Part shown: in pieces, positions 1 through 1,573 of the stretch
How positions within the stretch are numbered: position 1 is the stretch's first letter
Layout: each line of letters begins with the position of its first letter
Virus record (IMG/VR): IMGVR_UViG_3300045988_010208
Direction: 5' to 3' (one strand)
DNA from: a virus
Lineage: Duplodnaviria; Heunggongvirae; Uroviricota; Caudoviricetes
Length of the DNA: 64,000 nucleotides
The notes under the pieces: generated by a model
The model's input: the letters and a program-made list of their open reading frames with translations, nothing else
What the model was told of the DNA's origin: nothing
The model's database searches: none
Translations under genes and position numbers: made by a program

Positions 1-72
1 ATCTTCGTAAGCCTCTAGCTTAAGACCTTCAAAGAACTTAATAGCTTCTAAACCTTTTCTTGAGAGTTGCAT
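1..72 (-). CDS. Endolysin (lysozyme-like), N-terminal 24 codons only; gene continues beyond window start
   Basis: Reverse complement of 1-72 reads MQLSRKGLEAIKFFEGLKLEAYED, matching the conserved N-terminus of phage lysozymes (EG..L.AY.D); ATG overlaps the stop of the upstream gene (TAATG). Confidence 0.55.
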   Translation of the reverse strand, partial: MQLSRKGLEAIKFFEGLKLEAYED

Positions 73-1205
73 TATGCCTCCCCTGCTGGGTTAACAGTAA
101 CTGTTGCTGCATTAGATGTTACAGAGCCACCTGCACCAGTAACTACACAGGTGTAGCTTCCTGAATCAGCAGTGGTTGCACCTTCTTTGGTGTAAGTTGC
201 AGTAGTTGCGTCTGGGATGTTTTCCTCACCCTTCTTCCACTGATAGCCTGTTGCACCTGTTGACACAACATTCAGCGTTAAGGTCTCACCTTCAGTGATT
301 TCTTGATTGGTTGGCTGTTGAGTGATTACAGGAAGTGCATTCACAGTTACTACGGCAGCGTTAGATTCCACTGCACCACCTGCACCTGTTACAACGCAAG
401 TGTATGAACCAGCATCTGTTGGCAGCGCACCAGACTTGCTATAGGTAGCCTCTGTAGCCGAAGGAATGTCAGAGCCATCTTTCTTCCACTGGTAACCCGT
501 TGCACCCGTTGCAGTCACTTCCAAGTTGATGTTTCCACCCTCATTGACGGTCTGACCAGAAGGTTGCTGTGTAATCACAGGCAGTGCGTTGACAGTAACT
601 GTTGCCGCATCTGATGTAACACTTGTACCAGCCTCTCCAGACACAACACAAGTATAGGAACCAGCATCAGAAGGTTCTACAGACTGTTTTGTGTAGGTTG
701 AAGATGTGGCACTAGTGATATCCTCACCACCCTTTTTCCATTGATAGCCAGTGGCATTGGTTGCAATAACGCTTAGGGTAAGTGTGCCACCTTCATTTAC
801 TGTTTGATTGGTTGGCTGCTGAGTGATTGCTGGCGGCTTGATAGCATCCTTCAACTTAGCATTCAACATTGAGAATGGTTTAACTCTTGCCAGCCATTCA
901 CAATAAATTGTATCAACGTCTTTACCATTGATAATTGCATATTGTAAGTCCATGAAGAAGTCAGAAGTTCTCATTTGAGCACCGATGCTGTAAAGCAACT
1001 CATCACTAAATGGAACTTTGTAGTCTGGTTTGTAGTCAAACTCCTCAACTTCTGCAATATCAGCTTCAGGCCAATACGAGCTATAGGTAAGCGGTAAAAT
1101 AGCCTCTTGATATGTTCTAAAATCATATCTCTTACCAGCTTTTACGTTTGCAATGAAGCCCTTCACAAACTCTTTGAAGTCTGGGTAAGTCTTTGCTTTA
1201 ATCAT
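72..1205 (-). CDS. Hypothetical protein; N-terminal domain shared with adjacent paralog, plus three tandem Ig-like repeats
   Basis: 377-aa ORF; C-terminal 260 aa are three ~90-aa repeats (LPVITQQP...GYQWKK...GSYTCVV...TVTVN) typical of Ig-like domains on phage surface proteins; start overlaps stop of 1202..1573. Confidence 0.6.
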   Translation of the reverse strand: MIKAKTYPDFKEFVKGFIANVKAGKRYDFRTYQEAILPLTYSSYWPEADIAEVEEFDYKPDYKVPFSDELLYSIGAQMRTSDFFMDLQYAIINGKDVDTIYCEWLARVKPFSMLNAKLKDAIKPPAITQQPTNQTVNEGGTLTLSVIATNATGYQWKKGGEDITSATSSTYTKQSVEPSDAGSYTCVVSGEAGTSVTSDAATVTVNALPVITQQPSGQTVNEGGNINLEVTATGATGYQWKKDGSDIPSATEATYSKSGALPTDAGSYTCVVTGAGGAVESNAAVVTVNALPVITQQPTNQEITEGETLTLNVVSTGATGYQWKKGEENIPDATTATYTKEGATTADSGSYTCVVTGAGGSVTSNAATVTVNPAGEA

Positions 1206-1573
1206 TTCTTTTTAGCCTCTAAATGTGCGTTTAGTCTAAAATAACCTTTGTGATGTGGAGATACATCACCAACGACAATACCTTTAACCTTATAGCCTTT
1301 ACCAATTACATACTGGATATCCATAAGGAATCTTCCAAGACCAACAATATGGAACATTGGATATAATAGATTCTCAGAGTCTGGAATATTGATTTCAGGT
1401 TTGTAGGTACGCTGTTCGCTTGTTGGTGTGATATCTTCTTCAGGCCATTTGCTGAGTCTCCATGTCAAAGGTGTTGGGATAACATCATTAAGACTGTACC
1501 TTTCACCATTTTGCACGGAATTGATATAGGATTGTAGGAAGCAATAAAAGTCTTTTGCACTCTTAGCTTTCAT
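1202..1573 (-). CDS. Hypothetical protein, paralog of the N-terminal domain of 72..1205
   Basis: 123-aa ORF sharing motifs with 72..1205 N-terminus (KxK...DF..F...I..V..G.RY, WPEEDI, YKP, LLY, FLMDLQYxI); ATGA overlap suggests translational coupling. Confidence 0.6.
   Translation of the reverse strand: MKAKSAKDFYCFLQSYINSVQNGERYSLNDVIPTPLTWRLSKWPEEDITPTSEQRTYKPEINIPDSENLLYPMFHIVGLGRFLMDIQYVIGKGYKVKGIVVGDVSPHHKGYFRLNAHLEAKKK

Follow-up and report, generated by a model that had tools for sequence, protein, structure and literature searches.

A Hoc-like head decoration gene of a Felix O1-like phage and its anchor-only tandem paralog

A stretch of viral DNA of 64,000 nucleotides (IMG/VR virus record IMGVR_UViG_3300045988_010208, Caudoviricetes), here called the window, begins with two overlapping genes on the minus strand whose products start alike. 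The longer gene (72..1205) encodes 377 residues, in which an N-terminal domain is followed by immunoglobulin (Ig)-like repeats, and the shorter gene (1202..1573) encodes 123 residues. A first-pass annotation made from the sequence alone had noticed that the two share an N-terminal domain of about 120 residues. BLASTP of the two products, both taken from the list of open reading frames (ORFs) at these coordinates, bears this out (38% identity over 101 residues, E = 6e-17, residues 1-99 of the short protein against 2-100 of the long one). The locus raises two questions: what the shared domain does, and what use a phage could have for a second copy of it that carries no Ig-like domain. To the first, solved structures give an answer, even though the domain had been thought to offer no functional clue. 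To the second, the answer has to be graded. Taking both genes together, it is likely that the longer one encodes Hex-Dec, a head decoration protein, and that the shorter one encodes a late accessory protein, dispensable to the phage, whose place of action is at or close to the centre of the hexamers into which the major capsid protein (MCP) assembles.

The window comes from a Felixounavirus: over its bases 1-2500, it has 96-97% identity with upwards of 200 Felix O1-like phages of known sequence, wV8, finno and Alf5 among them. In a phmmer search of the Protein Data Bank (PDB), the 377-residue protein aligns over its full length with 9ncf_S, an 'Immunoglobulin-like domain protein' of phage Bas63 (E = 2e-299), and with 9c2d_S, gp20 of phage Sf14 (E = 6e-171). 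It also matches phrog_3995 (E = 4e-208), and its gene is syntenic with Felix O1 ORF36, Sf14 gp20 and bas63_0124. Cryo-electron microscopy (cryo-EM) of the Bas63 and Sf14 heads has described Hex-Dec and gp20 as Hoc-like monomers (PMC12609058, PMC11821841). Their capsid-binding domain (CapBD), of about 118-120 residues in two pseudo-symmetric lobes, occupies the centres of the edge (quasi-3-fold) hexamers of a T=9 head, that is, 60 of its 80 hexamers (PMC12609058, PMC11821841). In Sf14, Arg79 and Arg107 form salt bridges to Asp221 of the MCP, and Hex-Dec is kept off the true 3-fold hexamers because the geometry of Asp221 differs there (PMC11821841). In both phages, over 10 kb separate the gene from the structural module (PMC12609058, PMC11821841).

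The first 120 residues of the 377-residue protein (846..1205, minus strand) hardly differ from the part of 9ncf_S that was modelled, with about 98% identity to the CapBD of Bas63 Hex-Dec and about 87% to that of Sf14 gp20. Arg79 and Arg107 are both present, and these two positions are 98-100% conserved in 44 Hex-Dec sequences. Since this domain is nearly identical to a solved CapBD, the shared domain, whose function had seemed obscure, is a characterised capsid anchor. The full-length alignments thus identify the gene product as Hex-Dec, which in Felix O1-like myophages is the Hoc-like protein that decorates the head. The earlier suggestion that the Ig-bearing protein might be a decoration component is confirmed in its homologs, which are seen on the head by cryo-EM (PMC12609058, PMC11821841) and are found in virions by mass spectrometry (MS), both as Felix O1 gp36, the Hex-Dec ortholog, with 44% coverage (PMC3185647) and as Sf14 gp20 (PMC11821841). 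In the phage of the window, the near-identity to the solved homologs suggests that Hex-Dec is likewise placed on the edge hexamers. Its CapBD would plug the centre of the hexamer as a monomer, and a flexible string of Ig domains, three here and one to four in relatives, would project outward, presumably for weak adhesion or control of aggregation by analogy with T4 Hoc. Hex-Dec and its anchor domain have already been described, and the window is one of hundreds of near-identical genomes.

Three tandem repeats follow the anchor, at residues 125-207 (585..833), 208-290 (336..584) and 291-372 (90..335), all on the minus strand. They recur with a period of 249-252 nucleotides and are 66-69% identical to one another. 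Each is about 83 residues long, not about 90 as first estimated, but their number and their Ig-like nature stand. Pfam places Ig_3 (E = 4e-32), I-set (2e-25) and Ig_2 (2e-25) on three stretches each, AlphaFold2 folds residues 125-372 into three beta-sandwiches (pLDDT about 95), and the best Foldseek matches of this region are titin I67-I69, Robo1 Ig1-4 and LRIG1 (E 1e-19 to 1e-21). Neither cryo-EM study resolved the Ig domains, which are flexible (PMC12609058, PMC11821841). The full-length AlphaFold2 model was used for the Ig region alone, the pLDDT of its CapBD part being 32-57. AlphaFold2 does poorly on the CapBD of Hex-Dec from a shallow alignment of near-identical sequences, and the Sf14 authors likewise noted that an AlphaFold CapBD did not fit their density (PMC11821841). 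The isolated CapBD has no match in Pfam, NCBIfam or PADLOC.

Judged by its sequence and model, the 123-residue product is a tandem paralog that consists of the CapBD and nothing else. It stops three residues past the end of this domain and has no Ig domains. Against the PDB, phmmer aligns it with the CapBD of the same two chains only (9ncf_S, E = 1.6e-11; 9c2d_S, E = 8e-11). An AlphaFold2 model built from a mixed alignment of paralogs and Hex-Decs (pLDDT 70.8, pTM 0.71) matches 9ncf_S and 9c2d_S in Foldseek with TM-scores of 0.65-0.68 and a probability of 1.0, and nothing else below E = 1. Pfam, NCBIfam and PADLOC give no match to the paralog, and PHROGs gives phrog_4463 alone, labelled 'unknown function'. 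The same gene is ORF37 in Felix O1, gp42 in wV8, gp21 in Sf14 and bas63_0125 in Bas63.

Even though the fold and core appear to be kept, the two proteins are well separated, with 36-38% identity in protein and 47% in DNA. The paralog lacks both Arg anchors. Among 48 paralog clusters, the column of Arg79 holds Gly in 98%, and that of Arg107 holds Gln or His; in the 44 Hex-Dec sequences, Arg79 is 100% conserved. The single-copy homolog of Erwinia phages has Arg and Lys at the 79 and 107 columns, and the paralog is therefore taken to be the derived copy. About 40 columns, mostly in the second lobe, are fixed differently between the 48 paralogs and the 44 Hex-Decs, and the mean net charge is +1.6 in the paralog versus -0.2 in Hex-Dec. 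Pairwise Nei-Gojobori comparison puts the ratio of non-synonymous to synonymous substitution rates (dN/dS) at 0.07-0.20 in the paralog and at 0.02-0.06 in the Hex-Dec CapBD, with synonymous sites saturated between genera. Both genes are thus constrained, the paralog being under purifying selection but evolving about twice as fast at non-synonymous sites.

The paralog and Hex-Dec genes are joined by an ATGA stop/start overlap (1202..1205, minus strand), which is read as translational coupling. The overlap measures 1 or 4 nucleotides in Sf14, Mijalis, Bas63 and the metagenomic lineage L013, and 8 nucleotides in CHB7. Of the coupled ATGA overlaps proposed in the first-pass annotation, this one holds, while the junction between Hex-Dec and the endolysin is TAATG, a 1-nucleotide overlap at position 72. 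The endolysin itself had been correctly placed. The window edge cuts its gene, leaving only the 5' end of a GH24 lysozyme gene (1..72, minus strand), whose 24 residues match the phrog_7 endolysin, and the syntenic gene is annotated as endolysin in wV8, Felix O1, Sf14 and Bas63. By synteny with wV8, Felix O1, Sf14, CHB7, Mijalis and Bas63, the Hex-Dec gene has its usual place away from the structural module, with the endolysin gene as its immediate downstream neighbour; in the numbering of Felix O1, ORF35 is the lysin, ORF36 Hex-Dec and ORF37 the paralog. Co-expression of the two paralogs, suggested from their overlap, has support from reverse transcription PCR in Felix O1, where ORF36 and ORF37 fall in the same late class, maximal at 60 min alongside structural genes (PMC3185647 Table 3). 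The lysin ORF35 peaks at 25 min (PMC3185647).

The paralog is missing from the lists of virion proteins that bear on it. The whole-phage shotgun list of Felix O1, which has a cut-off of at least 25% coverage, does not include gp37, though proteins down to 9.7 kDa and low-copy baseplate proteins are present (PMC3185647). For VpaE1, in which the paralog is ORF40c, the main text of the study gives 22 virion proteins and states that these add only gp54, gp58 and gp68 to the Felix O1 list; the absence of the paralog there rests on this main-text statement. In Bas63, there is no density on non-edge hexamers (PMC12609058), and in Sf14, protrusions are seen only at quasi-3-fold hexamers, including in a 4.5 Å asymmetric map (PMC11821841). 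The genomes of both phages encode the paralog. It is not assigned in the maps of either phage or in the table of structural gene products of Sf14, and neither structural paper mentions it (PMC12609058, PMC11821841). In a full-text literature search on Hex-Dec and Felixounavirus, no other treatment of the paralog was found.

A tblastn search of 253 records of Felixounavirus, Mooglevirus and Suspvirus gives a full-length paralog in 233 of them, with identities of 73-100%. The paralog is syntenic in these three lineages and in a fourth, more distant metagenomic one. On an 87-kb metagenomic contig, a 122-residue protein with 45% identity to the paralog is encoded directly upstream of a 298-residue Hex-Dec and a lysozyme, with the gene overlap and the upstream hairpin (see below) both kept. 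Erwinia phages (Kolesnikvirus-like) and Hafnia phages have one CapBD gene in the same slot, between the endolysin gene and the homolog of wV8 gp43, and it carries Ig-type modules of other kinds. Proteins P0104, P0105 and P0109 have other Ig-like beta-sandwich modules, of unassigned type. A distant single-copy CapBD (P0107, at 4001-4462 of the metagenomic sequence L015) ends in a low-complexity tail of about 30 residues, rich in Lys, Ser and Glu, instead of Ig domains. Across the lineages, a constant anchor is combined with interchangeable display modules. Word-indexed homolog searches returned Ounavirinae-type sequences only, and since an exhaustive hidden Markov model search of 1.84 billion representatives gave only 13 clusters, one of them the 122-residue protein of the 87-kb contig, the CapBD is a tiny family confined to this phage group. 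The record of 'Staphylococcus phage SA1' is a Felix O1-like sequence that encodes a 123-residue protein 99% identical to the paralog; this deposit is most likely mislabelled or contaminated.

In a neighbour-joining tree, the paralog clade and the Hex-Dec clade each have a support of 100/100, and their union to the exclusion of the Erwinia and Hafnia single-copy genes has 8/100. Because of this low value, the duplication is not dated by the tree, which is compatible both with an origin after the Erwinia split and with an older duplication followed by loss.

Natural variants of the pair are of two kinds. In 19 records (Tf, REP5-12, SP116, mio, Z31, P54, fBSPA4 and others), from phages of Shigella, E. 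coli and Salmonella, the paralog is reduced to a common remnant of about 190 bp with 94-100% mutual identity, in which an internal deletion has occurred and the start codon is lost, as in Shigella phage Tf (L003 2309-2500). Since these records form a clade without the paralog, the paralog is dispensable for a viable, diversifying lineage. Hex-Dec is kept intact in the paralog-less records except Z31 (L002 2998-3570), in which it is also split and truncated to the CapBD and a fragment of one Ig repeat. The second kind is a chimera in Salmonella phage SP3_SHan-2021 (L005 2504-3382), in which paralog residues 1-47 are joined to Hex-Dec from residue 50 onward. It arose when a deletion of 374 bp joined the two genes at their single site of strong DNA microhomology (TGGCCTGAAG..GATAT, encoding WPE-DI), which in the window lies in the WPEEDI codons of the paralog (1430..1447, minus strand) and the WPEADI codons of Hex-Dec (1056..1073, minus strand). 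The nearest relatives of SP3 (Shy, SME50, ZX4221 and KEP2) are 99% identical and keep both genes. An assembly artefact is an unlikely source of the chimera, the genes being only 47% identical in DNA and the junction falling in their sole microhomology, though it is a single record.

Since the anchors are replaced, the protein is absent from virion proteomes and maps, and the gene is lost in nature, the paralog is probably not a stable stoichiometric virion protein. The reading to which we commit is that it is a real, late, non-essential protein with a predicted CapBD fold and a capsid-contact surface that appears to be remodelled. Its site of action is most likely the hexamer centre, or Hex-Dec itself, with a transient role during head maturation. 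It would act transiently or weakly at or near the centre of the MCP hexamer while the head is assembled, possibly as an Ig-less competitor or placeholder with an effect on the place or the time of Hex-Dec binding.

Several points weigh against this reading. The role is inferred, and with a pLDDT of 71 the model of the paralog can be trusted only moderately. Arg79 is missing from the Hafnia single-copy homolog as well and is thus no absolute requirement for capsid binding. Absence from the MS lists is a weak negative, given the coverage cut-off in Felix O1 and the main-text basis in VpaE1, and the Sf14 table is limited to structural proteins that had been assigned. Symmetry averaging would blur a monomer that sits on an icosahedral 3-fold axis. 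Finally, the SP3 chimera hints that the first lobe of the paralog is still compatible with a capsid-binding protein.

A sharper form of the accessory role would make the paralog a dedicated regulator of decoration, in which the Ig-less CapBD binds weakly or transiently to the 20 true 3-fold hexamers or to prohead hexamers and so contributes to the 60-of-80 pattern and to the copy number of the fibres. This more specific proposal is doubtful. If true, the two genes would be a 'display plus blank' system that arose by tandem duplication. We know of no such pair reported for any Hoc-like decoration system.

The best of the competing explanations takes the paralog off the capsid altogether, its CapBD scaffold having been recruited for another late intracellular task, such as binding a host or phage factor. 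The roughly 40 columns fixed differently, the loss of both anchor Arg residues, the faster non-synonymous evolution, the failure to detect the protein in virions and its dispensability in a natural clade would all be expected of a neofunctionalised copy. However, four lineages have preserved both the late timing and the tight coupling to Hex-Dec, no match to defence, anti-defence or other families was found in Pfam, NCBIfam or PADLOC, and the SP3 chimera carries the first lobe of the paralog in an otherwise intact Hex-Dec gene. This explanation is accordingly held to be unlikely.

Alternatively, the paralog could be a virion component after all, an Ig-less plug on the 20 true 3-fold hexamers, in which case the two proteins together would cap all 80. 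Such a plug would agree with the CapBD fold, with late expression alongside and coupled to Hex-Dec, and with the Asp221 geometry that excludes Hex-Dec from precisely these hexamers (PMC11821841). What has changed is exactly the Arg anchors, together with many second-lobe residues, their replacements are strictly conserved, and the more basic character of the paralog would suit an acidic pore. The maps of Bas63 and Sf14 speak against it, since both phages encode the paralog but show no density or protrusions beyond the edge hexamers, and so do the virion proteomes of Felix O1 and, as far as its main text goes, VpaE1, which lack the paralog despite the detection of proteins of 9-13 kDa and of low-copy baseplate proteins. 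A plug of this kind is quite improbable, and an accessory that acts transiently at the hexamer centre remains the preferred reading.

A reading of the short gene as a functionless duplicate in the course of decay can be given very little credence: although the gene is lost in 19 records and absent from Erwinia, Hafnia and more distant phages, its dN/dS of 0.07-0.20 with saturated synonymous sites, its full-length presence in 233 of 253 records, its 45%-identical ortholog at the same position in the distant 87-kb metagenomic phage and its late transcription in Felix O1 (PMC3185647) all speak for a maintained protein. Least credible of all is that both genes encode tail proteins with Ig domains on the tail, as the 'tail protein' and 'major tail protein' labels of GenBank and PHROG and the name given to gp36 in the Felix O1 paper, 'major tail protein' (PMC3185647), would have it, because cryo-EM of two phages puts the homolog on capsid hexamers, the Bas63 authors reject the usual annotation as wrong (PMC12609058), and the PHROG tail families other than phrog_3995 match the Ig region only. 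For the close homologs, the tail assignment is refuted by PDB entries 9NCF and 9C2D.

For the longer gene, the analysis corrects rather than adds: the fitting annotation is head decoration protein (Hex-Dec), not tail protein, with an anchor whose structure and binding site are known. The anchor-only paralog, its natural losses and the chimera were not found described, and they make a modest new variant of a known decoration system, namely a conserved, late and coupled copy of a capsid anchor with no display module, present in both phages whose virions have been solved. If the paralog binds capsids, it would bear on the restriction of Hex-Dec to 60 of the 80 hexamers, and it would be relevant to the use of Hex-Dec as a phage-display scaffold on Felix O1-like therapeutic and biocontrol phages. 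Natural material for a test is at hand in the 19 paralog-less records and the SP3 chimera.

Around the pair, the layout is that of a Felix O1-like genome. About 25 nucleotides upstream of the start of the paralog lies a GC-rich hairpin (1597..1612, minus strand; GGGGCUGAUGCCCC, then a U-poor tail), which is annotated as a rho-independent terminator in wV8; its U-tract is poor. The hairpin is also kept upstream of the paralog slot in paralog-less and distant lineages. A scan of 1..3000 for sigma-70 promoters and terminators gave 4 sites versus 6.6 expected from shuffles; with no excess, no promoter is claimed. The next gene (1621-2211, minus strand) encodes a 196-residue protein of phrog_4034 (unknown function), equivalent to wV8 gp43 and Felix O1 ORF38, which is syntenic with the CapBD gene in all lineages examined (Felixounavirus, Mooglevirus, Suspvirus, Erwinia, Hafnia and both metagenomic ones). 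Its distant homolog in L015 has a faint match to Phage_Inh_N, and in Felix O1, ORF38 reaches its maximum at 25 min, its product being missing from the virion list.

Divergent from the Hex-Dec operon are the genes of a DUF5681 protein (2831-3202, plus strand) and of a 471-residue DUF2828/vWA protein labelled 'RNA-binding protein' (3283-4698, plus strand). This pair, immediately upstream of a tRNA array, is kept even in the distant metagenomic lineage (L015 499-2416). The array itself consists of 25 tRNA genes found by ARAGORN (4864-10286, plus strand), of which 23 are confirmed by Rfam at gathering score; over the whole window, Rfam found tRNAs only. Such arrays are typical of Felix O1-like phages, so this one fits the assignment to Felixounavirus.

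Among known decoration systems, the nearest are Hex-Dec of Bas63 (PDB 9NCF chain S; the phage is also named JohannRWettstein) and gp20 of Sf14 (9C2D chain S), which belong to the same family and occupy the same locus as the 377-residue protein. They differ in the number of Ig repeats, three in the window and in Sf14 but four in Bas63, and the 123-residue neighbour differs from all of them in having the CapBD only, with both Arg anchors gone. T4 Hoc is similar in being a non-essential monomer at the hexamer centre, built of a small capsid-binding domain and a string of Ig domains, with a proposed role in adhesion or aggregation (PMC12609058, PMC11821841). However, the anchor of Hoc is C-terminal while that of Hex-Dec is N-terminal, and the Bas63 authors describe the CapBD of Hex-Dec as larger, of distinct topology and pseudo-C2 symmetric (PMC12609058). 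The anchor of Hoc has no sequence match (PDB phmmer) or fold match (Foldseek with the paralog model, only 9ncf_S and 9c2d_S below E = 1) to the CapBD, and 'Hoc-like' PHROG matches are restricted to the Ig region (residues 121-371). In T4, we know of no anchor-only paralog. T5 pb10 (PDB 5LXK, 8ZVI) is related through its Ig domain alone, which matches Hex-Dec residues 216-290 (5lxk_A, 8zvi_a; E = 2.6e-11), while its anchor domain is not matched by the CapBD in sequence or in the fold search with the paralog. In other phages, Ig-less and Ig-bearing isoforms of structural proteins are reportedly made by programmed frameshifting, as Fraser et al. are said to have described in 2006. Like those isoforms, the two products of this locus have a common N-terminal structural module with an Ig display module on one only; unlike them, they come from separate, diverged genes, and the short form is probably not a stable part of the particle.

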